DNA from: Nostoc sp. PCC 7120 = FACHB-418
Lineage (GTDB): Bacteria; Cyanobacteriota; Cyanobacteriia; Cyanobacteriales; Nostocaceae
Reading direction: 5' to 3'
Length of the DNA: 32,000 bases
NCBI RefSeq assembly: GCF_000009705.1
Contig: NC_003276.1
Span: 270,001 to 302,000, forward strand
A program made the position numbers and the translations under genes. Every line of letters starts with the position of its first letter. The first letter of the stretch is position 1. Of this stretch, positions 2,836 through 26,644 are shown piece by piece. The notes below the pieces were generated by a model. The model was not told the DNA's origin. It ran no database searches and saw only the letters and a list, made by a program, of their open reading frames with translations.

Positions 2836-4335
2836 CTAAGACCCAGTTGAAGCAAAATCTTGATGAATAAATCCAGCAGCACTACGAGATGCTTCCAAAA
2901 TAGTGAGTAAACCACTGCCGGGATGAACAGCGCCACCAATCCAGTACAGTCCGGCAATATTTTCCGAACGGATGGGTGGACGAAAGGGCCCAAGCTGAGT
3001 CAAATTGTGGCTGAGATTAAACACAGCACCCAAATGAACGCGATAATCATCAAGCCAAGATTGTGCTGTGTAACAACTTTGGGTAACAATGTGCTGTTCA
3101 ATATTGTGATATCCCAGCAAATGTAAACGTTTAAGAATAAAATCTGTATAGCTTTTTTGTTTAATATCCCAGTCAACAGCATAAGAAGTGTTGGGAATTG
3201 GTACTAAAACAAATAAAGTGCTGTGGCCGGCAGGTGCATTACTGGGGTCGATAATTGTAGGATTACAGACATAAAATGGTGGATCAGTTTCATCTAGTGC
3301 TGAATCATCAACCCAAGGACGTTCAAGTCGGCGAATATTGTCTGATAAATAGATTTGATGATGAGGTAAATCTTCGTAGCGGCGATTGATACCCAAATAA
3401 AGCATGAAGGTAGAGCATGAGAATTGCATTTGCCCAAGCTTGTTATCAGTGTAACGACCGCGTGCTGAAGTTGGTAACAGATGACGAACAGCATAGGCAA
3501 AGTCAGCATTAATCACTACTGTATCAAACTGATGGCGAGAAGCATCAGCCAGTTCCAAACCACGAACTTGCCCTTGTTCAATCCAGATTTGGTGAACAGG
3601 CGAATGCAGATGAATTTTCACTCCTAAGTCTTGAGCGGCATTAGCCAAGCCCTGAGCTAATGCACGAAATCCACCGACTGGATGCCATACTCCTTGGGAA
3701 AATTCTAAGAATGGAATCAGGCTAAAGACACTTGATGCCACAGTTGGGTGCATTCCCAAATATTTTGACGGATAGCTCAGAGCATAGACTAAACGCTCAT
3801 CTTGAAAAAATCGCCAAAAGTGTTGATATAAATTTTCCCAAGGACGAAAAGACAAAAACTTCATCAGTTCATCTGGGCGCAAGTAACCAAAAATAGAGCG
3901 TGCAGGGCCGGCTAAATAGGGTTTGTAACCTAACTCATATTTACGGATATGCTCACTATACCAGCGATCAAATGCTAATGGTAAATCGGAGCGTAAGGTT
4001 GCCAGTTGGGTTTTAAATGACTGTAGATCCGAAGTGATATCCAGTTGAGTACCATCCCAAAATTTCAAACGTGTATATGGTTCTAAACGTTTGAGTTGAA
4101 CATAGTCGGCAAAATTTAAACCAGCCTCCTCAAAAAGCTCTTTATATAAGTGTGGTAGTTGGAGAATAGTGGGGCCAGTATCAAAGGCGTAGGAATCAAC
4201 TTCAAAACCGCGCATTCTTCCACCAACACGTTCAGCCGCCTCAAAGATTTCTACTTGATACCCAAGTCCAGCAAGACGGATAGCTGTAGCTAAACCGCCA
4301 GGGCCTGCGCCGACAATCGCAACTTTTTTAGACAT
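2836..4335 (-). CDS. phytoene desaturase family FAD-dependent oxidoreductase (CrtI/CrtN/CrtD-like carotenoid desaturase)
   Basis: 499-aa ORF with ATG at 4335 and GGAG 9 nt upstream. The N-terminal Rossmann motif is KKVAIVGAGPGGLATAIRLAGLGYQVEIFEAAERVGGR, followed by FDTGPT and the C-terminal GLYWIGGAVHPGSG typical of CrtI-family enzymes. The exact carotenoid substrate cannot be told from sequence alone. Confidence 0.85.
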   Translation of the reverse strand: MSKKVAIVGAGPGGLATAIRLAGLGYQVEIFEAAERVGGRMRGFEVDSYAFDTGPTILQLPHLYKELFEEAGLNFADYVQLKRLEPYTRLKFWDGTQLDITSDLQSFKTQLATLRSDLPLAFDRWYSEHIRKYELGYKPYLAGPARSIFGYLRPDELMKFLSFRPWENLYQHFWRFFQDERLVYALSYPSKYLGMHPTVASSVFSLIPFLEFSQGVWHPVGGFRALAQGLANAAQDLGVKIHLHSPVHQIWIEQGQVRGLELADASRHQFDTVVINADFAYAVRHLLPTSARGRYTDNKLGQMQFSCSTFMLYLGINRRYEDLPHHQIYLSDNIRRLERPWVDDSALDETDPPFYVCNPTIIDPSNAPAGHSTLFVLVPIPNTSYAVDWDIKQKSYTDFILKRLHLLGYHNIEQHIVTQSCYTAQSWLDDYRVHLGAVFNLSHNLTQLGPFRPPIRSENIAGLYWIGGAVHPGSGLLTILEASRSAAGFIHQDFASTGS

Positions 4336-4624
4336 AGATGAACTCCTCGTTTACTTAGGCAGCCTATATTTTTTAAACACTTGCTGAAGACAATCAAGGA
4401 AATTTGTTTAGTTTGGGTGATAAATTTGCGTCATAAATTCTCATCTTTTCATTTTTCGGTTGATTTTCACCAAGAAAAATTTTGCTCTTTTAATTCGCAA
4501 AAGACTAAATTGTAGAGCGATCGCTCATTCGTCACAGCAGATTTAGTACAATCTGTCAGTAGACCCCACTGACCAGTAGGAACAGCAATTGAACCCTAGT
4601 TCACCCATTCCCCCAAGCCGAACC

Positions 4625-6120: not shown

Positions 6121-6321
6121 CTACTGTTGTGCCTTGGGGGTTTGGGTTGGCGAATGTGTAATTTCTCCCTCAGCGTAACCTAAATCATACATACTCGCCG
6201 CTTGAGCATTTTGTTCTGGTGGCACTTTGGGTTTTCCCGCCCAGGCATCAGATTTTCCTAAGCTAAACCAATCTTCATCAGCCATCACAGAACCGATTCT
6301 GTTGTTTGTTGTTTTATTCAT
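6121..6321 (-). CDS. hypothetical small protein (66 aa)
   Basis: ATG ORF from the track. No family recognised. Confidence 0.4.
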   Translation of the reverse strand: MNKTTNNRIGSVMADEDWFSLGKSDAWAGKPKVPPEQNAQAASMYDLGYAEGEITHSPTQTPKAQQ

Positions 6322-6434
6322 CGATGCAGTTGTGAGTGGTTAAGGTTTGGCTGCGGCTATAATTTATGATGTTTGCACTACGGTTTGACCAAAACCTGTA
6401 TCTAGAGGAAGAACAAGCATATTTACTGTGAATA

Positions 6435-7346
6435 CTAATTTCTCACATTCTCCTGAACTAATAAAACTGATTTTACTTTTCGTTTAATGGGATTTCCTTG
6501 TAAATCAAATTTTCCATAAAAGGCTTTGCCATTGTAATACAGCGAAGAAGAACTACCTCCGTCTAAGTTCATTGCTGCGGATGCACCCAACTTTTTCATC
6601 AAATCTGCTAATTGCACTAGAGATATGCCAGAATTTTTGGGTTTTGAAGGTTTTTGAGCAACCATTACTAAAATAATGCTGCCCTCACTGGTAATACCTA
6701 CAGCAGTTCTAGCGTTAAGCTGTTTACTCAAGAGTGCATCGCGTCCTTTGGCATTATCTACAAAACCTTCTGGTACTGATGTCAGTTTTGGTAATAAGCG
6801 TGGGCCAGCACCTATAGCATCAACTAAGCGACAATTTGCTGGTGGTGATTCATTGTGCAAAGTAATATCATAACGGGTAGTTTGCCCACATAAATAGCGA
6901 CGAAATTCACTGCGATTAAAAATGAGATTGAGGTAAGGCTTTAATTGCGGATTGTTTACTAGGCGCTCATTATCTTTAGGGTCAGCAACCATCTGACCAG
7001 TCACCACTACATAGGATGTTGATTTTTGATTGGCTGGGTCAAAAAAGCCTGCGTTGAAGATAGCAAAAGCTCGATGCTTCTGGGCAAATTCCTCTACAGT
7101 GCTTACCTTCGCTGATAATGCTCCAGTTACTACAAATGGGCTATTGGCTGGAATCAATAAAATGTGAGCCATACCTTGGGGCAAGCTACGCTCTATGTAG
7201 CGGATGGTTTTTGGTGGTGAAGGAGTAACTGTTGGTATAGCAGAGGATATTGACGGTAGAGAAGAACGCACACCTAAGCAAGACAGTAACCCTAAACTAA
7301 TTAGTACCAAAACCAACACCCTAATTTTTCTCACTTTTACCCCCAA
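6435..7346 (-). CDS. phosphodiester glycosidase family protein (DUF2233), secreted/lipoprotein-like
   Basis: Contains NAGFFDP and NLDGGSSSSL, the hallmark motifs of the family. The N-terminus is hydrophobic (RVLVLVLISLGLLSCLG). The track start is TTG at 7346; a GTG at 7334 is an alternative. Confidence 0.75.
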   Translation of the reverse strand: MGVKVRKIRVLVLVLISLGLLSCLGVRSSLPSISSAIPTVTPSPPKTIRYIERSLPQGMAHILLIPANSPFVVTGALSAKVSTVEEFAQKHRAFAIFNAGFFDPANQKSTSYVVVTGQMVADPKDNERLVNNPQLKPYLNLIFNRSEFRRYLCGQTTRYDITLHNESPPANCRLVDAIGAGPRLLPKLTSVPEGFVDNAKGRDALLSKQLNARTAVGITSEGSIILVMVAQKPSKPKNSGISLVQLADLMKKLGASAAMNLDGGSSSSLYYNGKAFYGKFDLQGNPIKRKVKSVLLVQENVRN

Positions 7347-9531: not shown

Positions 9532-9879
9532 TTATTGAACCAAACTCAATTGCTTCCCGTACTCTTGCTCCAAACACTCCACCTTGGGCCTAAAGAAACA
9601 CACGCAGAAGCGATCGCCCACCACCCGATCAATCCCATGCGGCTGTTTGTTGTCAAAAGCAATACAATCGCCTTCCTCCAACCAATATGATTCCATCCGC
9701 CGAGTATCTTGGCAACCGGAGATTGAGAACTTCGCCCTACCCATAATGTTGATTTGCGCTGCTCCTGATGTGTAAGCCGGAGAATCCCGATGTACTTTAA
9801 TCCTTTGGTAAGATGCAAATAGATTGGTAGCTGCTAACCATGAACCGTTAGGCGTTTCTGAATAACCAGCAATCTTTTG
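9532..9879 (-). pseudogene. truncated second copy of the 2OG-Fe(II) oxygenase domain of gene 11445-12767
   Basis: The open frame reads ...YQRIKVHRDSPAYTSGAAQINIMGRAKFSISGCQDTRRMESYWLEEGDCIAFDNKQPHGIDRVVGDRFCVCFFR.... It is collinear with the last ~95 aa of the 440-aa protein. It has no N-terminal domain and no credible start; an in-frame TGA lies at 9880-9882. Confidence 0.7.
9541..9803. repeat. direct repeat copy A (about 260 bp)
   Basis: Aligns without gaps to 11451-11713 at a constant offset of 1910 bp. My hand count is 27 mismatches in 260 positions, about 90 percent identity. Confidence 0.85.
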
Positions 9880-10758: not shown

Positions 10759-11139
10759 TTATGACATCGAAGATGGTATTTTTTCTAACGAAACTAAACC
10801 ATTGTCCTCAAAATCTATGCCTAGATGATATCCATTCATCATTCCAGTTCCCAATAAAGGCTTATTAGCAGAAGCCAAAACGAAAACTACTTTTTCTACA
10901 TTGTCCCAAACAATCGTTGTCAAATGTATAGATGATAAAACTTGGCTACCATCAGCTAATATTGCAGGTATAGTGCTATGTAAGGGAAGGTTCATTGCAC
11001 TGATAGCTTGTGGTGGTAAGGTAAGGTAGCCATTAAATCCAGTATCAATGACAAAATCCAGTGAAAAATCTGGTTGTCCAGGTAAACGAAAAATTACTGG
11101 AACTGTTGCCCTACCAGCAATTAACCGTCCGTCAATCAT
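10759..11139 (-). CDS. clan AA (retropepsin-like) aspartic protease
   Basis: 126 aa with the catalytic D-T-G in FVIDTGFNGYLTLP and the C-terminal LLGTGMM flap-like motif. The size is typical of the single-domain bacterial/archaeal family. Its start overlaps the upstream ORF stop (ATGA). Confidence 0.75.
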   Translation of the reverse strand: MIDGRLIAGRATVPVIFRLPGQPDFSLDFVIDTGFNGYLTLPPQAISAMNLPLHSTIPAILADGSQVLSSIHLTTIVWDNVEKVVFVLASANKPLLGTGMMNGYHLGIDFEDNGLVSLEKIPSSMS

Positions 11140-11408
11140 TCGGCTATACGCTCCATATTTCCACCAAAACCAAATGCAGCGTTATAACCTATTCGCATCA
11201 TAAATAATCTAGCATTTGGGTTTTTCTGCTTTAACTTAAATCCTGGTTCTATACCAATTTCATCAATTCCATACTCCCCAGTCTCAGCATCAATCACAAT
11301 CATCTTGCCAATATTATCGCCATGCTCAACCTCTTGGCGAATACCATTTTCATAAAATTGATTAGCTCTTTGGGCAACTTCTTCTACAGTCCAAAAAATA
11401 GCCTGCAT
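11136..11408 (-). CDS. small partner protein of the aspartic protease (about 90 aa)
   Basis: Translationally coupled to the protease by an ATGA overlap at 11136-11139. I prefer ATG at 11408 (AGGTG 6-7 nt upstream) over the track GTG at 11414. Confidence 0.55.
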   Translation of the reverse strand: MQAIFWTVEEVAQRANQFYENGIRQEVEHGDNIGKMIVIDAETGEYGIDEIGIEPGFKLKQKNPNARLFMMRIGYNAAFGFGGNMERIAE

Positions 11409-11444
11409 AATCACACCTGGTTTATGCTTTTGACTTAATTATAG

Positions 11445-12767
11445 CTAAACCAAACTCAATTGCTTCCTGTACTCTTGCTCCAAATACTCCGCCTTGAGCC
11501 TAAAGAAGCACACACACCAGCGATCGCCCACCACCCGATCAATCCCATGCGGCTGCTTGTTGTCAAAAGCAATACAATCGCCCTCCTCCAGCCAATATGA
11601 TTCCATCCGCCGCACATCCTGGCAACCAGAGATTGAGAACTTCGCTCGACCCATGATATTAATTTGCGCTGCTCCTGAAGCATAAGCTGGTGAATCCCGA
11701 TGTACTTTGATTTGTGTCCCAGCCGGATAAAACAACACTAACGCTTGATGAAAGTCCGGCAACAGCTTCTCGCCCAAAGCCTCAATTACCTCAGCACCAG
11801 CATAACGCCCCGGCTCAACCAACTTTACCTCAGCCTTCTTACCAGACTTGGCACTAGCCAAACTAACGAAGCGCCGCAGATGCAACTCTAGACGACCATC
11901 CGCGTATTGTGAGACTGAGGGAAACATCTGCGACTTGACGGATTTGCACCAATCCTGAATCTGTGACAACTCAGCACCCTCCAACTTGCCCAGGCGAGTA
12001 ATCAGTTCGGGGGATTCGGGTTGTGCGACAGGTGGTGGTGCTACTTCTGGAACTTGAGGAGTTGCCACTGCCGCCAAGGATGGCACAAGGCGTGGACGAT
12101 AAAATTCATGTTGCAGTCCCGACAACACCCCCAGCACGCCCAACTCTGACCAATCGCCCAAATCCTCCCCATGCAGAGATACCCGATAGTAGCCACAAGT
12201 TAGGCGATCGCACCTTACAGCCAACCCAGTGTCAAAACATTTCGCCAGTAGCGTTTGAACAACAGGTGGATAAGTGGAGTTAATTGAAGTAGTGTCGTTT
12301 GGCGTAAAGTTGTCAGTTTTGGTAATGCTAGAGGTATCGGTTGAGTCGTGACCCTTCTCTATTTGCGTGGGCTGCCTGTTGGAAGGCATTTGACCAACCA
12401 GAGATCCGATTTCACCACCCCAAAGTTCATGTAAATACTTTTGTACTACTTCTTCTCCAATCTGATATCGATGGCAGAAATCCCCAGTTTTTTCAAAGCA
12501 GCACAAAGTCATATCCACAGGCTTGTCCTTCTGTTTCCCCACCCACAACTGGATCAACTGCTGCCGGGAATCTAAAATCTCGCGGAAACAGCGCTTGTAT
12601 TCTTCCTGTGCGATCGCATCTTTGGCGCTAGATTTCCACCAGTGCAGTAGTTCAGGAGTAGGGGCGAACAGGAGTAAATGCTTGCCAGTCCACCCCTTGG
12701 GCGGATAGAGCGAAATAGAAACAGCCTCCCCCTTGATTTCGCCCTTATAGTACGAGGTAAAAATCAT
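11445..12767 (-). CDS. fusion protein: N-terminal DUF488-like domain, Pro-rich linker, C-terminal AlkB-like 2OG-Fe(II) dioxygenase domain
   Basis: The N-terminus (SISLYPPKGW...APTPELLHWWK...YKRCFREIL...TLCCFEKTGDFCHRYQIGEEV) resembles the phage-type DUF488 subclade. The C-terminus has H-x-D (IKVHRDS), a distal His (KQPHGIDRV) and a basic R-x-x-x-x-F-F-R tail, as in 2OG oxygenases. GGAGG lies 8 nt upstream of the ATG. Confidence 0.6.
   Translation of the reverse strand: MIFTSYYKGEIKGEAVSISLYPPKGWTGKHLLLFAPTPELLHWWKSSAKDAIAQEEYKRCFREILDSRQQLIQLWVGKQKDKPVDMTLCCFEKTGDFCHRYQIGEEVVQKYLHELWGGEIGSLVGQMPSNRQPTQIEKGHDSTDTSSITKTDNFTPNDTTSINSTYPPVVQTLLAKCFDTGLAVRCDRLTCGYYRVSLHGEDLGDWSELGVLGVLSGLQHEFYRPRLVPSLAAVATPQVPEVAPPPVAQPESPELITRLGKLEGAELSQIQDWCKSVKSQMFPSVSQYADGRLELHLRRFVSLASAKSGKKAEVKLVEPGRYAGAEVIEALGEKLLPDFHQALVLFYPAGTQIKVHRDSPAYASGAAQINIMGRAKFSISGCQDVRRMESYWLEEGDCIAFDNKQPHGIDRVVGDRWCVCFFRLKAEYLEQEYRKQLSLV
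11451..11713. repeat. direct repeat copy B (3' end of gene 11445-12767)
   Basis: Partner of 9541-9803; see that entry. Confidence 0.85.
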
Positions 12768-12780
12768 ACGACCTCCGTTA

Positions 12781-14467
12781 AATCATGAGGTGTGACCCAA
12801 GCAAGGCGATTGATAAACTTATCCTTTTGTGTAGACTTCGGGAAAATACCTAGCGTGGCAAAACTTACTAGAGAAGACGACTCTCTAGATTAGCCAAGTA
12901 AGCCTTGGGGTCTCTGCGAAATCGATACTGTTCAATTCTGGCTTTGTGGTGTTTTTGCAATTGAGAGCGTAATTCGAGCCAAGTATGAATATCAACTTGT
13001 GCTAAATCAGATGCGGTAAAAGAATGAAGCTTAGTAGCTATCGCACAGGCAAGTTTGACAGAACCACGAATAACGAGAGATGAGGGGGCAACCTTACGAC
13101 CGGTACAACGACGTTGATGATAACGTAGCATACCAAAAGCGTGTTCTAAGTCATTATTAGTTCTAGGAAAATCTTCAATTTCATAACAATGAAAAAGTCC
13201 AGACCAGTAGCTGTGGGTGGTTTTTATAAAGTTATCGATTGCAGTGTTCAGGGTACCAGCTTTCTGCTTTTGTTGAGACATTTCTGTCAACAGTTGCTGA
13301 TAACTTTGTTTGACCCCAGCAGCATCAAGACCTATTTTATTGTTGAGAATATTACTAGCTTTATCAACCCACTGATATGCAACCCTCACAGGTGAAAATA
13401 AAGATGCAGTAGCAGATAATCCCTTAGCTAGAAGGTGTTTTAGGTTAACTAAAGGTGGTGGTAAAGCACTTCTTTTTTCCATCCTTTCTAAGCTTTGTTC
13501 TATCAAAGTCAAATTTTCTTGTAACTTTAATCCAGATGCCTCTAACGGTGGATGTCCATCATTGGTTATAGAACTACGGACTGCCGAGCAATAATCTTCA
13601 ATAATAGTCACCAAATCCTTATCTTCATTGGTAACACTACGTTCAATTTCTCGTAATCCTCTAACTTTTTTTTTCAATTCCTTTTTTGCATTTCTATCCG
13701 CCTCATATATGGGTTTAATTGCTTCTTTCAGGTAATGGTAATGACATAAACCATGAGCAATTTTAGGTAATGCTAACCCAACAGCTTTACGAATTGATTG
13801 TTGTCCATCACTAACAACTCCATCAATTGGTACATCCAGTGTATTAGCCACTTCTAATAATAACGCTACTAAATCTTCATTCCTTGATGATAATAAAGTT
13901 TTAGCAAGTAAAATTTCTCCTGATAGACAATCTCGAATTACCCATAATACCTCATGTCCAATTTCTGGCTGCATCCCATCAATGGCTAATATCACCCGTC
14001 CTTGATTAGCCACTATTGCTTTTAATCTTTTATGGTCTTTTAGCCATAAAGAAAGTAACTCGTCATATCTGTCAATTAAGTGTGTGACCGTTCGTTTACT
14101 TATACATATACCCTTTAATTCAAGGTGAGTGTGTATTTGAGGAACACTTCTATGTTCCTGGTAGCGTAATGCTCCTATATAAGCAATCACATCCAAACCA
14201 AATTCGTTCTGTGGTAGAGCGAGTGACCCTTCTTGCTCTGGTCGATATGCTTTTTTATACCGCATACATGACTTATTTTGACATCGCCGAATTTTTAGCT
14301 GTAGTTCTACTACCCCATTTAGCGTTCTTATATGTCGAGGATTATTGTATTCATTCCACATTGCTTGACCACACGAAGGGCATTTTTTTGAACACAATCG
14401 AGTACTTCAAACGATGTTGCCTCTGGTTTTAAACTTTTTCTTACCAAGTTTTTGTACCATTATTTCG
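12781..14467 (-). mobile_element. insertion sequence carrying the 509-aa transposase; ends not resolved
   Basis: The transposase gene sits in the 1.7-kb gap between two tightly packed operon genes (12767 and 14468), so the IS ends must lie within these limits. The interval has no HIP1 site. I found only a weak terminal match (GGCAAAACTTAC near 12857 against the reverse complement of CCAAGTTTTTGTACC near 14443). Confidence 0.4.
12868..14397 (-). CDS. DDE-type transposase with N-terminal zinc ribbon (possibly ISKra4-like; family uncertain)
   Basis: 509 aa. CPSCG...C-x-x-x-x-C at the N-terminus, then LAIDGMQPEIGHEVLWVIRD and VVSDGQQSIRKAV as candidate DDE aspartate blocks. The track start is TTG. 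Confidence 0.7.
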   Translation of the reverse strand: MCSKKCPSCGQAMWNEYNNPRHIRTLNGVVELQLKIRRCQNKSCMRYKKAYRPEQEGSLALPQNEFGLDVIAYIGALRYQEHRSVPQIHTHLELKGICISKRTVTHLIDRYDELLSLWLKDHKRLKAIVANQGRVILAIDGMQPEIGHEVLWVIRDCLSGEILLAKTLLSSRNEDLVALLLEVANTLDVPIDGVVSDGQQSIRKAVGLALPKIAHGLCHYHYLKEAIKPIYEADRNAKKELKKKVRGLREIERSVTNEDKDLVTIIEDYCSAVRSSITNDGHPPLEASGLKLQENLTLIEQSLERMEKRSALPPPLVNLKHLLAKGLSATASLFSPVRVAYQWVDKASNILNNKIGLDAAGVKQSYQQLLTEMSQQKQKAGTLNTAIDNFIKTTHSYWSGLFHCYEIEDFPRTNNDLEHAFGMLRYHQRRCTGRKVAPSSLVIRGSVKLACAIATKLHSFTASDLAQVDIHTWLELRSQLQKHHKARIEQYRFRRDPKAYLANLESRLL

Positions 14468-14944
14468 TTACAAGCTCAAGATTACAGGATCTCTGCTCCT
14501 CTCTAGTAAGTTTTGCCACGCTAGGAAAATACAAACGCCTTCATCAGTTGGTAGTTTGAGCGCTGGGGATTTCCACTCGACCTGAAACAGCCAAGCATTG
14601 TTAATAAGCGACATCCCCAAAATCATGCGAATCTTCGGCCCATCATTAGCGAATCGAAAGTTCACCAACTGACCTAAACGAAAGTGAGGTTTTGAGATGA
14701 CCAGGGGGTAAAGCTGACCCCTAGCGATGATTTCACTATCTGGGACAGAGATGATTCCGCGATCGCTCTCGACAGAATAGTTCCAGCCGTCATCACTCCA
14801 CTCAACGCCGCAGCAGTAACCGGCGACTTTGGAAGAGGGCAAGTAGACTTTTTCGATGAGACTGACGGCAAGAGGTGAGAGTTGCTGACCCCAAGGCGGG
14901 GAAATGTACCAGCACGTTTCCAGGGTATTGAGAGGGTTAGTCAT
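14468..14944 (-). CDS. DUF1392-like protein, paralogue A
   Basis: CWYISPPWG...VYL...GYCCGVEW...FRLGQLV...ILGMSLINNAWLFQVEW is collinear with ORF 26186-26644 (NWYLSPPCD...VYL...GYCCGVEW...FGLGDRV...IVGIQLVNNSWCYAVEM). There is an ATGA overlap with the upstream gene. Confidence 0.55.
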   Translation of the reverse strand: MTNPLNTLETCWYISPPWGQQLSPLAVSLIEKVYLPSSKVAGYCCGVEWSDDGWNYSVESDRGIISVPDSEIIARGQLYPLVISKPHFRLGQLVNFRFANDGPKIRMILGMSLINNAWLFQVEWKSPALKLPTDEGVCIFLAWQNLLERSRDPVILSL

Positions 14945-15657
14945 GATGCCTCCTTTTCAAAAAGTAAACTGCATAGATAGTCAATGCGTTTCCAAGCAAC
15001 GGCGGCCTGTCGCGGAGAGCAACTCAATCCGTAAGCACGACGGGCATCATAGTTACCAGGGATGTTTTTAGCTACTCCAATGGAAATCCGAGAAGCCACC
15101 TTAGAAATTCCGGGTTGATAGCTTCTTGTTTCGAGAGAGAGCCGCACTTCCTCAATGTGATTTCTAATTTGGTTTGTCCAGGGGGTCGGCTGTTGACTGT
15201 TGAATAAGCCATTGGGGTAGGCAATGATGAAGATTCGTTTCCTTTCGTGCGGCAAGCCGACTTGTTGTGCAGAGATACAGTTCCATCCGCCCATGTACCC
15301 GATGCTGTCAAGGTCACAGATGATTTGGTCAAGTCCGCGATAGAGTAAACCTGTGGGGTTCTCGATGAGAGCGATCGCGGGTCTGGGATCAGTGAGTCCT
15401 TGGCGGTTGCCAGAGTTACTTGTACCGGCGCAGGGAAAACCCCCACAGACGATATCGAATTGTCCCCTGTGGCAGTTATAGGTGGTAATGTCTGAGTGAA
15501 TGGGGGTTTGGGGTTGTTCATGACGTAGTTGTGATTGAGAGTAGGGTGAGATTTCGACAAATTGTTTGACCTGGAATTTATGAGACAGACCCGCCGCAGC
15601 GATACCGTGATGGCACAGTCCGCCGATGCCAGAGAATAGGGAGAGGACTGATTTCAT
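14941..15657 (-). CDS. C5 cytosine DNA methyltransferase-like protein, unusually short (238 aa) and motif-divergent
   Basis: Motif I LFSGIGG, DIT, motif IV GGFPCAGTS (Pro-Cys kept, Gln lost), motif VI as IENPTG, motif VIII ERKRIFIIA, and GNY late in the protein. The spacing between motifs IV and VI is about 15 aa shorter than in M.HhaI-type enzymes, and the target-recognition region is minimal. Confidence 0.65.
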   Translation of the reverse strand: MKSVLSLFSGIGGLCHHGIAAAGLSHKFQVKQFVEISPYSQSQLRHEQPQTPIHSDITTYNCHRGQFDIVCGGFPCAGTSNSGNRQGLTDPRPAIALIENPTGLLYRGLDQIICDLDSIGYMGGWNCISAQQVGLPHERKRIFIIAYPNGLFNSQQPTPWTNQIRNHIEEVRLSLETRSYQPGISKVASRISIGVAKNIPGNYDARRAYGLSCSPRQAAVAWKRIDYLCSLLFEKEAS

Positions 15658-16046
15658 GCGGCTGCCTCCTGAACCAATTCATCAGGCACATCAAAAAGTC
15701 CCAATTGTCCGATGTAGGGAATGGGGGTAATTGTGCGTGGATTGTCCAGATGCCAGTGAAACTGCTGTGGCATCCCCCAACCAGAACCAGTTTCTGAAAA
15801 CTGACAACCAACAACTCTAACGACACCGATGATTTGACCGCGACTGAGAGTGTTTAGTTCTGGTACGGAAACACCAATGCTTTGACAAAATTCTTTGGCT
15901 TGCAGATATTCTTTTTTGGTGCATTTTTGAGCGGCGTGGATGAGAATATCACCCCGGTAGTGAATGGGCCAAACTCTGTTTTCAATATTTTTATTGGCGT
16001 AGATGATAGCCCATGCCCAAGGCTGTCTGACGGTGAGTGCTTTCAT
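15654..16046 (-). CDS. ASCH domain protein
   Basis: MKALTVRQPWAWAIIYANKNIENRVW...GDILIHA is the canonical ASCH N-terminal signature. 130 aa. ATGA overlap with the methyltransferase-like gene. Confidence 0.75.
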   Translation of the reverse strand: MKALTVRQPWAWAIIYANKNIENRVWPIHYRGDILIHAAQKCTKKEYLQAKEFCQSIGVSVPELNTLSRGQIIGVVRVVGCQFSETGSGWGMPQQFHWHLDNPRTITPIPYIGQLGLFDVPDELVQEAAA

Positions 16047-20452: not shown

Positions 20453-21736
20453 CTATATGGCATAAGCGTAACCATCTTTTTTGTGAATAGTTTTACAATA
20501 TTTATGGGAGATACCTTGGATTAATCCTTGTACAGTTGAGATGTTAAAACTACCTGTGGCACGAGTGGCGATCCTACCAATATAAGTCCCAATTTTTTTA
20601 CCTTTAGTAACAACAGCTTTGACAATATCTCCAGTTTGAAATCCAAAATGAAATTTAGTTCTAGAGCAATGTCGAATAGGAAATCCATACTTATCGGTAC
20701 GACATGATTGCCTTGTACCATGACCATTGGCAGTAATTAACAATAGTCTAATACCTTTGATTTTGAGTATTGGTGTTGATGCACCAACGCAACAAGCGTC
20801 GAGCCAGTGAGATTTATTTAATCCCTGTTGGGTTCTGTTAAATTTAGTTAATCCACCAGAACCAATTTCTACTGGTAAGCCAGTAGATTTTAAAACCTCT
20901 AATAATGCAAATCGAGTTGTATTAACTGCTGCTGCATCTGCAAGTGACTTTTTAGTTAATGCCAGAATCTTCTCTAGTCTTGATTTATCTTTTTTAAGAA
21001 AATTCTTGATATCTTGAGTGCCTTTTTTAAGGTTACATTTTTCACAACTGAGTGTAAGATTTGTGATGGAGTTTGACCCACCCTTACTTTTCGGATGTAT
21101 GTGTTCAATTTGAAGCGGGACATCTTTAATCCCGCAATAAGCACATTCTCTATTCCACTTTTCAAGGAAATACTGTCGAGTTTCAAAACCAGCCAAAGTG
21201 CCTTGCTGATACTCTTTACCTTGAATATCTGGGTGGCGAATTAACTGCGTGTCAAACTTTACTAATTCTTGACTAATGGCTGTGATTGGTGCAACTTTCC
21301 TTAACCTATTTACCCAAGTTTTGATATTTTCAACTCGACTTTGCAAGCTTGGTGCTAACCATCCTTGGGGTCTGGTTCTATTGAAAAATCTGGGTTGGCG
21401 ATATCTGGTTTTTCTACTCCTTCTACTCCTACGTAATTGTCTTCTAGAAGTTAACGCATCTCGGATGGCAAATCCCCTGTGCTTTAATTCAGCAGCAAAT
21501 ACAACTTCACCATTAACATCGTTTACCAATGCTATACCTGTGTATTTTGCTCCAGGATCGAACTTTAACCTGAGTGGAGATACAGTAGCATCTGTATATG
21601 ATTCTTTCACAACAATTGTAAAAGGAAAGCGTCTAAAAACTGCTGCTTTTCCTCTCTTTAGTAATTGCCTTGCTTGTGCTGGGTGAATTGGATTTAATGA
21701 TCTTTTTTCGTTATCAATTACAAATACTTTGCACAT
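20453..21736 (-). CDS. iscB: IscB-type RNA-guided nuclease (split RuvC with inserted HNH; RRXRR/PLMP N-terminus)
   Basis: 427 aa. PLMP-like N-terminus VFVIDNEKRSLNPIHPAQARQLLKRGKAAVFRRFPFTIVV. RuvC-I LRLKFDPGAKYTGIALV. Arg-rich bridge helix RRQLRRSRRSRKTRYRQPRF. RuvC-II ISQELVKFD. HNH CAYCG...LQIEHIHPKSKGGSNSITNLTLSCEKCNLKKG. RuvC-III SHWLDACCVG. C-terminal TID-like GFQTGDIVKAVVTKGKKIGTYIGRIATRATGSFNI. GGAGG lies 8 nt upstream of the ATG. Confidence 0.9.
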   Translation of the reverse strand: MCKVFVIDNEKRSLNPIHPAQARQLLKRGKAAVFRRFPFTIVVKESYTDATVSPLRLKFDPGAKYTGIALVNDVNGEVVFAAELKHRGFAIRDALTSRRQLRRSRRSRKTRYRQPRFFNRTRPQGWLAPSLQSRVENIKTWVNRLRKVAPITAISQELVKFDTQLIRHPDIQGKEYQQGTLAGFETRQYFLEKWNRECAYCGIKDVPLQIEHIHPKSKGGSNSITNLTLSCEKCNLKKGTQDIKNFLKKDKSRLEKILALTKKSLADAAAVNTTRFALLEVLKSTGLPVEIGSGGLTKFNRTQQGLNKSHWLDACCVGASTPILKIKGIRLLLITANGHGTRQSCRTDKYGFPIRHCSRTKFHFGFQTGDIVKAVVTKGKKIGTYIGRIATRATGSFNISTVQGLIQGISHKYCKTIHKKDGYAYAI

Positions 21737-21982
21737 GATATGCCTCCAATTGCTTGGGTAATGTTAGCCTAGACAATGATTTAAAGGCTTTTTACGCTAA
21801 CAGCACTGGCTTAACCCATTCAACCTGTTTAACTATTAGCCCTAGTGCTGGGAACTGGCTACGCATTCCCAGGTAAGATGACCTTAAAATCGTAGTGCGC
21901 GAAACACTTAGTCGGGTAAACTCTGGGCTTTGAAAGCCCCCACTATATTGCTTTTAGCAATCCGTGGTGGGTAGTTTACAAA
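21737..21982 (-). ncRNA. candidate omega-RNA scaffold of the IscB element (guide predicted just outside, about 21983-22000)
   Basis: The whole 246-nt gap between the element end and the iscB ATG is non-coding and dense in complementary segments. In plus coordinates: 21916-21922 with 21973-21979; 21939-21943 with 21967-21971; 21948-21951 with 21957-21960; 21925-21931 with 21933-21939; 21801-21809 with 21841-21850; 21848-21854 with 21866-21872. The position and length fit known IscB omega-RNAs. The exact ends are not determinable from sequence. Confidence 0.6.
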
Positions 21983-22356: not shown

Positions 22357-22958
22357 TTAGAACTTTCCTCCTACGTGTGGTCGAAATGTTAGGTTAATTC
22401 GCGTGGTGACAAATTTGGTTGTCTTCGGAACCTGATGTACGTGAGTAGTTTGGCAACCGGGAAGCATGACCAACAAACTCCCATGCTCCAACCAAAAATC
22501 AGTAGGCTTACCACCGATAGGCTTTAGCTGAAACTTCCGCGCCGATCCCAAACTGATTGATGCAATCGCCGGCTCAATACCCATAGATGATTCCTTATCC
22601 GCGTGCCACCCTATACTGTCCTGTCCGCTTCTGTATTGGTTGCCGATGACGATGCGGAAGCTATAACCAGTAGCCGCAGTGATTTTGTCTCGCAACTTAG
22701 CCAAAGGTTCTGTCCAAGCTAGGGGTTTAAGCAGTACGCTATTGGAGTAGAGGTAATCACACCCCTCTCCCCATAAATGCACTCCAGGCGGGGAACAGGT
22801 ATCGTTTTACCCAGCATCCTTATCTGGTTTTGTTGCCATTGCAGTTGTTGACAATGCTGATATAACTCGTCCGCCTCTGGCTTACTTAAAAAATCGGGGT
22901 AATAACGGACGGGTAAAACTGCTGTGGTTGGGTCATCGAATAGTAATAACTGTTTCAT
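22357..22958 (-). pseudogene. alkB: alpha-ketoglutarate-dependent dioxygenase AlkB, split by a single frameshift near 22783-22790
   Basis: The upstream ORF (22719-22958) ends ...IPVPRLECIYGERG. The downstream ORF (22357-22782) reads HLWGEGCDYLYSNS...IVIGNQYRSGQDSIGWHADKE...IASISLG...HGSLLVMLPGCQTTHVHQVPK...RINLTFR. Together they make one AlkB (HxD, distal His, RxNLTFR) if one base is restored. Confidence 0.75.
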
Positions 22959-23587
22959 AACAGTACCTTTTCAGCTTTAACTAAAATCTCTTCATCACTT
23001 GCATCAAACAAATCCGCCTGATCGCCCCAACAGTCCCAGCCGTCCCTAGACTCTCGTGCGAATATTTCCAGCTTGGTCATATCTGGACAAAGTTTCTCCA
23101 CCAGTTCAAAAAATTCTGGGGGTTTACGGGAATGCTCACGCCGGGGCGAGTGTAAGATTGTTGATTGGTTCGTGAGCGTTGGCGTTCCGCCCGTCGTAGA
23201 CGTTTGCCCTGCAAAAGCTTTGACATTCCCACGAACAGCCAAAGCACAGTGTTCAGTCGAATTCCGCAACCAATGACCGACACCTAGATGTGTTTTCGTA
23301 CCATCTTTGGTTACTTTCCCCCAAGTGAGAATAGTCTTGAGGTCAAAACCCCACCTCTGCAAGCATTGTGCAGCTTCAATCATGTGGTTATTGGTAAACC
23401 ATAGCCACAGAACACAACCGCCAGCGTCGCATAAGTCGGGAATGGGCAGCGCCAGGATTTCAGGAGTTCGCATTGGCTGATAGGGGATGCGGTTGCGGTG
23501 AGTTTTGTCTTTAGAACGAAGTCTGTAGAACCAGGGCGGGTCGATGATGATGCACTGATACTGTCCTTGTAGAGTGGAAATTCTCAT
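22955..23587 (-). CDS. MT-A70 family N6-adenine DNA methyltransferase
   Basis: Catalytic CIIIDPPWFY (DPPW), followed by LWLWFTN, ILTWGK, HWLRNSTEHCALAVRG and HSRKPPEFFELVEKL, all typical MT-A70 blocks. ATGA overlaps at both ends. Confidence 0.85.
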   Translation of the reverse strand: MRISTLQGQYQCIIIDPPWFYRLRSKDKTHRNRIPYQPMRTPEILALPIPDLCDAGGCVLWLWFTNNHMIEAAQCLQRWGFDLKTILTWGKVTKDGTKTHLGVGHWLRNSTEHCALAVRGNVKAFAGQTSTTGGTPTLTNQSTILHSPRREHSRKPPEFFELVEKLCPDMTKLEIFARESRDGWDCWGDQADLFDASDEEILVKAEKVLL

Positions 23588-26185: not shown

Positions 26186-26644
26186 TTAGAAAAGCACTCG
26201 AATTAAATCTCGTTCGCTAACTAACGCAAAGCGATTGGGTGTCGTCAAAGTTTGGGACAAAGTGGGTGACATCATTTCTACGGCGTAACACCAAGAATTA
26301 TTTACCAGTTGAATTCCCACAATGAGCCGTTGCTTTGTTCCGTGAGGAAGACAACGCAGCATAACGCGATCGCCCAAACCAAAAGCAGGTTTTTTCAAAT
26401 TGGTGGTTTGAGGATGTCCCAAAGGGATAATCTGATGCTTTGTTGCGCGTAAGATTTCTTGATTGCAGATAACTGTATATAGCCAGATATCGTAATGCCA
26501 CTCAACACCACAGCAATAGCCGAATGTTCTAGTAGTTTTGAGGTACACTCTTTCTAACAAATTAGCTTCAGGAGGCAAAATCTTTTTATCACAAGGAGGA
26601 GAGAGATACCAATTTCTTTCGAGAGCAGAGATTACACAATTCAT
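26186..26644 (-). CDS. DUF1392-like protein, paralogue B
   Basis: See 14468-14944. Shared blocks are NWYLSPP, VYL, GYCCGVEW, FGLGDRV and IVGIQLVNNSW. Confidence 0.55.
   Translation of the reverse strand: MNCVISALERNWYLSPPCDKKILPPEANLLERVYLKTTRTFGYCCGVEWHYDIWLYTVICNQEILRATKHQIIPLGHPQTTNLKKPAFGLGDRVMLRCLPHGTKQRLIVGIQLVNNSWCYAVEMMSPTLSQTLTTPNRFALVSERDLIRVLF

Follow-up and report, generated by a model that had tools for sequence, protein, structure and literature searches.

Enzymes of the AlkB family of 2-oxoglutarate (2OG)–Fe(II) dioxygenases bind 2OG through an RxNxTxR motif about 17 residues past the distal His, and one of them, ALKBH2, is tethered to PCNA through an APIM (AlkB homologue 2 PCNA-interacting motif). 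To our knowledge, no characterised AlkB protein is fused to a DUF488 domain, no 2OG dioxygenase uses a clamp-binding motif, and no member of DUF488-N3a has an experimentally demonstrated activity. In the 2023 classification by Burroughs and Aravind, DUF4326 is reportedly the sister family of DUF488, and hypermodification modules that combine a phage TET/JBP dioxygenase with a C5-cytosine methyltransferase (C5-MTase) are said to have been described by Iyer et al. in 2013 and by Burke et al. in 2021. For DUF4326 itself, Iyer et al. 2021 (PMC7824862) predicted that it connects systems that use NAD+ to DNA modification where this meets replication and restriction–modification. Here we describe a gene whose 440-residue product joins a DUF488-N3a domain to a dioxygenase domain of AlkB-like fold. 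It lies in a 32,000-nt stretch of Nostoc sp. PCC 7120 = FACHB-418 (NC_003276.1, positions 270,001–302,000, forward strand), denoted the window, in which the positions of Table 1 are counted. Both domain superfamilies were already known and the DUF488-N3 clade had been described computationally; new here are a small dioxygenase clade that stands apart and escapes recognition by Pfam, several fusion architectures, a middle domain, a clamp-type motif, and a conserved gene module.

The fusion protein and the fold of its dioxygenase domain

That the protein is encoded by a single open reading frame (ORF), as the initial annotation of this DNA had it, is borne out by the ATG start, a GGAGG ribosome-binding site and the homologues. 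A hypothetical protein of the same sequence (100% identity), NIES23_57610, is encoded on a 391-kb plasmid of Trichormus variabilis NIES-23, and at least 17 full-length homologues (58–78% identity) are found in independent Nostocales assemblies. Ratios of nonsynonymous to synonymous substitution rates (dN/dS, Nei–Gojobori method, window protein versus seven orthologues) were low in the DUF488 domain (0.06–0.12), the middle domain (0.10–0.21) and the dioxygenase domain (0.04–0.09), but reached 0.3–1.0 in the linkers (0.3–0.6 in the first, 0.6–1.0 in the Pro-rich one), which is the pattern expected of three selected domains with free linkers between them. The ORF is real and intact, and purifying selection acts on each of its three folded domains; an assembly error, or two genes read as one, is ruled out by the independent full-length homologues and the dN/dS values. 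A promoter and terminator scan around the ORF gave counts no higher than in shuffled sequence. In the databases, the protein is annotated only as 'DUF488 family protein, N3 subclade' or, once, as 'AlkB'. The fusion had been noted as not known to be characterised, and our literature search returned no paper characterising a DUF488–dioxygenase fusion, albeit the computational description of the DUF488-N3 clade possibly mentions it.

Because the Pfam match of the C-terminal domain is sub-threshold (see below), the domain was assigned by structure comparison. A sequence search of the PDB with the dioxygenase profile gave no significant match, and fold comparison alone succeeded. The AlphaFold (AF2) model is confident (predicted local distance difference test, pLDDT, 93; predicted template-modelling score, pTM, 0.88), and Foldseek retrieved 523 PDB matches at E ≤ 1e-3, of which the best 50 listed are all 2OG oxygenases. 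E. coli AlkB (6y0q) ranks first (E = 2e-8, template-modelling (TM) score 0.70), followed by ALKBH5, ALKBH7 and OsALKBH1. In the viral structure library BFVD, the homologue of cyanophage CL131 scored best, then two giant-virus 2OG oxygenases, and after these mostly the replicase polyproteins of RNA viruses, chiefly plant viruses; AlkB domains are a known component of such replicases. TET/JBP proteins were found neither among the top 50 fold matches in the PDB or BFVD nor by Pfam. Within this double-stranded β-helix (DSBH) fold, the HRD...H...R pattern recognised earlier was recovered at conserved positions: H356-R357-D358 and H407 make up an intact predicted HxD...H iron triad and R416 is a candidate 2OG-binding arginine, ligand roles being assigned from position in the fold. 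In a set of 45 diverse family members, R292 and G396 are also invariant, and N370 and K404 are conserved in at least 90%.

The earlier label 'AlkB-like' holds for the fold but not for the family. In the C-terminal sequence H407-GIDRVVGD-R416-WCVCFF-R423 the conserved Arg stands at +9, as in PHD2 and P4H; R423 varies, relatives having K, Y, H or N in its place, N and T of the AlkB motif are lacking, and RxNxTxR is absent from the dioxygenase domain. By the criteria tested, the Pfam score included, the domain is not a bona fide member of the AlkB family.

The segments of the protein were mapped from an alignment of 25 relatives and two AF2 models. Both parts of the two-part layout proposed initially are present, but the protein divides into five segments, including a first linker and a middle domain that had been missed; the QLSLV tail and a downstream relic of the gene's 3' end (see below) likewise go beyond the initial annotation, whereas its Pro-rich linker PQVPEVAPPPVAQPESPE is present as described. 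The phage-associated DUF488 N-terminus with CCFEKTGDFCHR was recovered in the domain scan, in which Pfam DUF488-N3a (PF22751, 'active DUF488-N3 subclade') matched residues 27–105 with E = 4.7e-9 and 37.0 bits, above the 27-bit cut-off; the Pfam scan gave no N3i match for this domain. PHROG 2450 matched it as well (E = 1.9e-12). All of 14 sequences, the distant P0044 and P0045 among them, keep C90, E92, C98, H99 and R100, and G95 and F97 of the signature are likewise invariant across relatives. The AF2 model of residues 1–233 reached a pLDDT of 61.7 overall and 55–76 over the DUF488 domain; a Foldseek search with this low-confidence model and a PDB sequence search yielded no significant match for the domain, for which a Rossmannoid fold of the rhodanese-phosphatase type is expected. 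For the middle domain, the best Foldseek matches were double-stranded RNA-binding domains (dsRBDs) at a non-significant E of about 0.9. The domain has been assigned to no family and is possibly dsRBD-like, the resemblance in the model being a hint. In PADLOC, the DUF488 part matched the candidate systems PDC-M45C and PDC-M19A weakly, which is insufficient for a call as a defence gene.

The C-terminal tail and the partners of the dioxygenase family

The protein ends in KQLSLV, separated from the dioxygenase domain by a short variable spacer. A motif of the form Q-[LM]-x-L-[FVIL] is located 19–25 residues past the equivalent of R416 in 44 of 96 family members, compared to about 1.6 expected (members with a complete core, counted within 45 residues past that Arg; expectation from the motif density in 576 background ORFs). 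Background ORFs that end in the motif belong to the dioxygenase family and its relics, plus a single phage protein. Many standalone members terminate exactly in QLSLF, and QLALF and QLNLF are seen in relatives; in proteins that continue past the dioxygenase with additional domains, the motif stays internal at the same spot (QLALF, QLTLF, QLGLF, QLPLF). Four relatives from which the dioxygenase has been lost (P0030, P0032, P0033, P0035) keep the tail as EQLSLR or EQMSLL, P0032 ending in QMSLL. The bacterial clamp-binding consensus is QL[S/D]LF, more generally QxxLF, with position 5 being of importance for binding (PMC12309361), and the QLSLV of the window protein matches QL[S/D]LF in four of five positions. 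From this fit we infer that the fusion protein may be recruited to the β sliding clamp via its tail.

Among 1.84 billion representative proteins, a profile search detected only 81 clusters of the dioxygenase family at E ≤ 1e-3, and scanning 185,579 species genomes by pattern gave 20 loci of close relatives, all cyanobacterial and several of them fragments. Where a source is named, it is a cyanobacterium or a cyanobacterial phage or plasmid, also for distant standalone members. The majority of the family are standalone proteins of 160–200 residues. Among the fusions, the order DUF488–middle domain–dioxygenase is seen in the window protein and likewise in its orthologues from Nostocales; DUF488–dioxygenase–extra domain in IMG/VR contig L008 (449 residues); the reverse order, dioxygenase–DUF488–extra domain, in P0047, P0049 and P0053; and DUF488–dioxygenase in the divergent P0077. 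Two larger proteins show DUF4326–SLOG-like–dioxygenase–PIF1 helicase–large C-terminal region (P0105) and PIF1–NADAR–dioxygenase–large C-terminal region (P0108). As the fusion recurs in more than one domain order, the sequences give strong evidence that the DUF488/DUF4326-type domain and the dioxygenase share a substrate or pathway. IMG/VR scans with P0047, P0077 and alignment A5 revealed no further viral contexts. That DUF1392 is the free-standing form of the SH3-like extra domains was considered and rejected, as a hidden Markov model built from 17 DUF1392 sequences gave a best E of 0.04 against the proteins with these domains.

These partners bear on a possible function in counter-defence against attack of the nucleotide or ADP-ribose type. 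The enzyme would then free the DNA of the element from bulky adducts with an N-linkage, ADP-ribosylated bases for example, the dioxygenase and the phosphoesterase-like DUF488 domain each handling one part of a sugar-phosphate adduct, or degrade signals derived from NAD+/ADP-ribose or nucleotides. The dioxygenase family is fused to, or encoded near, the NAD+/ADP-ribose conflict domains DUF4326, SLOG/DprA-like, NADAR and YpsA. One standalone member is found 2.2 kb from a DUF4326 gene on a contig that also has a gene for a type IV coupling protein (TraG-like) and is probably a conjugative element, and another in an integrative element, close to a YpsA/SLOG gene. In P0044 and P0045, DUF488-N3a itself is joined to SLOG and to a segment that is Macro-like by eye only, and the SLOG-like ORF83 is an anti-Avs protein with homologues that carry DUF4326. 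Still, the Nostocales fusion is devoid of Macro, NADAR and SLOG, none of these was seen in the immediate conserved neighbourhood, no ADP-ribosyltransferase defence was identified in the window, and the proposed chemistry has no precedent. We consider this function improbable.

Two side observations concern distant relatives. Six metagenomic proteins of 1100–2100 residues (P0093, P0105, P0106, P0108, P0114, P0120) carry the dioxygenase together with a shared C-terminal region of about 800 residues; this region has no Pfam match, and its acidic motifs GGADLDDE and HDNDD resemble, by eye only, the DxDGD of two-barrel RNA polymerases. Lak megaphages encode a standalone DUF488-N3a homologue of 118 residues, 32% identical to the N-terminal domain of the window protein. 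In locus L030 (Prevotella phage Lak-A2, 93177–101491), it is ORF 3995–4351, and about 1.8 kb downstream ORF 6187–7122 has the appearance of a T4 Pnk-type polynucleotide kinase/phosphatase, assigned by eye, a neighbour that is consistent with nucleic-acid end processing.

The tail and the direct fusions to PIF1 helicase are the main reason why DNA at the replication fork is favoured as the substrate. Conversely, the enzyme could act on RNA (tRNA, mRNA or RNA ends) or on protein, for instance as a demethylase coupled to the processing of 2',3'-cyclic-phosphate or 2'-phosphate ends, or as a hydroxylase of the prolyl or aspartyl type. The best fold matches include the m6A RNA demethylase ALKBH5, the RNA-virus replicases and PHD2/P4H, the predicted 2OG-binding Arg has the spacing seen in PHD2, the weak best matches of the middle domain bind double-stranded RNA, and a Pnk-like gene is found near the Lak homologue. 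The DUF488 clade is, moreover, said to be predicted to act on RNA termini, among others, in the work of Burroughs and Aravind from 2023. However, the tail and the helicase fusions point to DNA, as do the conserved neighbours, i.e. DNA methyltransferases and a replication module (see below), and the dsRBD match lacks significance. That the substrate is RNA or protein seems a slim prospect to us.

The gene module and its state in the window

In intact Nostocales loci, such as those of the Nodularia plasmid CP169302 and of Anabaena azotica, the genes are ordered Rep-like (HTH_36), DnaB, orf127, ASCH, C5-MTase (461–518 residues), DUF1392 and fusion gene, and some loci have a TGT/DUF6884 (TGT/DpdA-like) gene and an N6/N4 methyltransferase (MTase) gene between DnaB and orf127. 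In the Nostocales DUF1392 is always the immediate upstream gene, usually with adjacent stop and start codons; in the intact relatives the fusion gene starts 1–2 nt past its stop and is followed on the 3' side by a 92-residue ORF and a clan-AA aspartic protease gene. On the viral contig L008, the genes for C5-MTase, fusion protein and ASCH follow one another in this order with overlapping stop and start codons, and in a Kamptonema prophage a standalone form is found beside Mom, C5-MTase, Bro-N and integrase. The protein gp087 of cyanophage vB_AphaS-CL131 (55% identical) is encoded in the early/replication region with Rha, DnaB, ASCH and C5-MTase.

The initial annotation had placed the gene at the end of an operon with C5-MTase-like, ASCH, DnaB, MT-A70 and alkB genes. 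The same architecture, with its conserved ASCH/C5-MTase/DUF1392 neighbourhood, was indeed retrieved in the Nostocales orthologues, but the copy of the module in the window is interrupted and decayed, and operon is too strong a term there. An insertion sequence (IS) and a terminator-like hairpin at its end intervene, the MTase is truncated, and MT-A70 and alkB lie about 10 kb upstream of the ORF, beyond another insertion that carries IscB and its ωRNA (Table 1). The IS is complete, with perfect inverted repeats of 25 bp at its termini (CTAGCGTGGCAAAACTTACTAGAGA), and is flanked by a target-site duplication of 8 bp (GTATTTTC, at 12842–12849 and 14525–14532); its transposase gave weak IS66/MULE-like matches and has a 569-residue relative in locus L003. 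The truncated C5-MTase is the N-terminal half, with motifs I–VIII visible and the target recognition domain and motifs IX–X missing. The same truncated allele is present in Nostoc parmelioides contig90 (L019) and a 193-residue remnant in Anabaena minutissima, the fusion gene being intact in all.

The proximity to C5-MTase genes is suggestive of DNA hypermodification, i.e. formation of 5-methylcytosine (5mC) by the C5-MTase, oxidation to 5-hydroxymethylcytosine or further by the dioxygenase (TET-like activity on an AlkB-like scaffold), and phosphorylation or other derivatisation of the hydroxyl by DUF488-N3a, which would shield the DNA from restriction. Synteny with the C5-MTase is seen in three gene orders (Nostocales plasmids; L008; the Kamptonema prophage and the metagenome-assembled genome L025). 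The module always includes ASCH, a PUA-like domain with a predicted role in reading modified bases, the TGT/DpdA-like and N6/N4 MTase genes occur in some loci, and a clamp tether would suit co-replicative modification; ALKBH1, an enzyme of the AlkB family, oxidises m5C in RNA. On the other hand, TET/JBP proteins are absent from the top 50 fold matches, and no glycosyltransferase, kinase or aGPT-type partner of the kind usual in phage hypermodification clusters was seen nearby. Purifying selection also persists where the adjacent MTase is truncated or absent, though host MTases could substitute. On balance, we regard hypermodification as unlikely.

Table 1 Features of the fusion gene and its surroundings (aa, amino acids)
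Feature	Window positions	Strand	Basis or remark
Whole fusion gene	11445..12767	-	ATG start, 440 aa and stop
Shine–Dalgarno GGAGG	12772..12776	-	4 nt upstream of ATG; read from sequence
DUF488-N3a domain, aa 1–118	12414..12767	-	Pfam PF22751, PHROG 2450, dN/dS
CCFEKTGDFCHR, aa 89–100, DUF488 CxE...CHR signature	12468..12503	-	conserved among relatives
Variable low-complexity linker, aa 119–164	12276..12413	-	length and sequence differ among homologues; pLDDT <50
Middle domain, aa 165–235, α-β-β-β-α	12063..12275	-	conserved alignment block; pLDDT 74–90
Pro-rich linker, aa 236–256	12000..12062	-	contains PQVPEVAPPPVAQPESPE at aa 237–254
2OG-Fe(II) dioxygenase domain (DSBH fold), aa 257–427	11487..11999	-	AF2, Foldseek, BFVD, dN/dS
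H356-R357-D358, HxD part of predicted iron triad	11694..11702	-	H, D invariant; R at least 90%; 45 members
H407, predicted distal iron-binding histidine	11547..11549	-	invariant in 45 family members
R416, predicted 2OG C5-carboxylate-binding arginine	11520..11522	-	invariant, 45 members; 9 residues past H407
QLSLV, aa 436–440, candidate β-sliding-clamp-binding motif	11448..11462	-	extreme C-terminus
IS element	12850..14524	-	1675 bp; 82 nt upstream of ORF; 509-aa DDE transposase gene 12868–14397
DUF1392 gene	14468..14944	-	IS in 3' end; last ~25 codons swapped for 18 IS-derived codons
Truncated C5-MTase gene, 238 aa	14941..15657	-	profile positions 3–174 of 324
ASCH-domain gene	15654..16046	-	conserved module member
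Second DUF1392 paralogue	26186..26644	-	40% identical to the 14468–14944 copy
Relic of the fusion gene's 3' end	9538..9834	-	domain aa ~89–179 and QLSLV tail; DNA 90% identical to 11448–11711
92-aa ORF and aspartic protease gene	10759..11414	-	overlapping; directly downstream of fusion gene
iscB, RNA-guided endonuclease gene	20453..21736	-	NCBIfam guided_IscB, E = 1e-134; Pfam RRXRR and HNH
ωRNA	21758..21979	-	Rfam HEARO, 149 bits; immediately upstream of iscB
Short AlkB gene	22357..22782	-	141 aa, GTG start; profile positions 53–194 of 194
MT-A70 adenine MTase gene	22955..23587	-	adjoins short AlkB gene

Besides the module proper, several features of the window were recorded. Partial copies similar to the relic of the 3' end are located 3' of the pair formed by the 92-residue ORF and the aspartic protease gene in L010, L013 and L005/L011, and further downstream in L004. 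As such copies recur in several loci, the duplication is recurrent and not recent, candidate origins being a decayed tandem paralogue or an inserted cassette that displaced the original 3' end. The pair itself consists of an ORF of no family and a 126-residue clan-AA protease (TIGR03698, DTG motif). It is 93–97% identical in L005, L010 and L013, a level far beyond that of the genes on either side and suggestive of a cassette that has spread recently. The same IscB (427 residues) is found in the related plasmid loci L003 and L005. The short AlkB apparently misses about 50 N-terminal residues; with the adjoining MT-A70 it makes up a second methyltransferase–dioxygenase pair in the same element.

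Proposed role and comparison with known systems

The reading we favour, tentatively and somewhat short of probable, is that of an enzyme of several domains, used by mobile elements (plasmid, prophage, cyanophage), that would work on DNA at the replication fork or behind it and protect the replicating DNA of the element by oxidative repair or demodification. We infer clamp tethering, DNA as substrate and the hydroxylation of a base-attached carbon. The C-terminal QLSLV, judged by its motif, would dock the protein on the β sliding clamp, and the middle domain, on weak indications, might help to hold nucleic acid. The dioxygenase would hydroxylate the base-attached carbon by AlkB-type chemistry on a presumed DNA substrate. 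Subsequently, DUF488-N3a would act in a coupled second step on a phosphate, a sugar-phosphate or a DNA end, as the reported classification of the clade suggests; this is the least constrained step of the mechanism. A specific possibility is the removal of N-alkyl lesions such as 3-methylcytosine (3mC), made by C5-MTases as a side reaction, which comes into question because a C5-MTase is the conserved neighbour. In eukaryotes, DNA methyltransferases (DNMTs) introduce 3mC and co-evolve with ALKB2 (PMC9246332). A role in nucleic-acid base modification or demodification, as suggested initially, would fit the conserved order ASCH, C5-MTase, DUF1392, fusion gene, and would fit the cyanophage and prophage relatives beside MTases and Mom; self-protection or anti-restriction would be a plausible purpose.

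A number of observations weigh against the favoured role in repair or demodification. Beyond the dioxygenase fold and the intact triad, everything in it is deduced rather than observed. The fold matches to PHD2 and bacterial P4H score within one order of magnitude of AlkB, and the Pfam AlkB model 2OG-FeII_Oxy_2 (PF13532) stays below its gathering score (E = 0.0078, 16.9 versus 31.2 bits); relatives reach 13.8–22.5 bits with this model, and 2OG-FeII_Oxy_3 and Asp_Arg_Hydrox score about equally. The DUF488 part of the AF2 model is of low confidence. Position 5 of the tail is V in the window protein and V or I across the Nostocales clade, not F, and more distant family members lack a clamp-type motif. 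The canonical, though short, AlkB beside MT-A70 would make simple repair of 3mC or 1-methyladenine partly redundant in this element, and simple dealkylation gives no reason for a domain with an expected phosphatase fold. Finally, the fusion is intact and constrained where the C5-MTase is truncated or lost (window, L019, L005, L012, L013).

As a bolder reading, the dioxygenase and DUF488-N3a could together carry out a novel two-step, clamp-tethered DNA chemistry in mobile elements of cyanobacteria, either by converting 5mC from the adjacent MTase into a phosphorylated or otherwise derivatised hydroxymethyl base or by oxidative removal of a sugar-phosphate adduct, e.g. an ADP-ribosylated base. 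We give it little credence; if true, DUF488 would gain its first biochemical function, and recruitment to the sliding clamp would be seen for the first time in a bacterial 2OG dioxygenase. DUF488, a widespread domain, is repeatedly fused to an enzyme of understood general chemistry within a DNA-methylation/replication module, which narrows the search for substrates to DNA bases.

In comparison with the DUF488-N3a clade, the protein shares the CxE...CHR signature and the phage and mobile-element contexts but is distinguished by the attached dioxygenase, middle domain and clamp-type motif. The DUF4326–SLOG–Macro–NADAR proteins of jumbo phages and giant viruses (PMC7824862) are approached by the metagenomic giants, which join this dioxygenase family to DUF4326, SLOG, NADAR and PIF1, whereas the window protein has DUF488 instead of DUF4326 and is devoid of SLOG, NADAR and Macro. 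With the phage TET/JBP modules it has in common a 2OG dioxygenase encoded beside a C5-MTase in phage or mobile DNA, but its dioxygenase falls outside the TET/JBP type and is accompanied by neither a glycosyltransferase nor another downstream transferase. The tail differs from those of bacterial clamp binders (Pol II, Pol IV, PolC, MutS, Hda) by V or I instead of F at position 5, being a candidate motif from sequence alone, but is similar in that a short motif occupies the extreme C-terminus past a variable linker. Relative to the AlkB family (AlkB, ALKBH2, ALKBH5, ALKBH7), identity is as low as 12–16%, the dioxygenase is more compact (about 170 residues), and its Arg at +9 contrasts with about +17 and RxNxTxR in AlkB. 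Still, the DSBH fold (E about 1e-8, TM score 0.6–0.72), the HxD...H triad and the nucleic-acid context are shared. The clamp-binding-type tail parallels the tether of ALKBH2 to PCNA and, if real, would represent its bacterial counterpart and show mobile elements bringing an enzyme for base oxidation to the replication fork.

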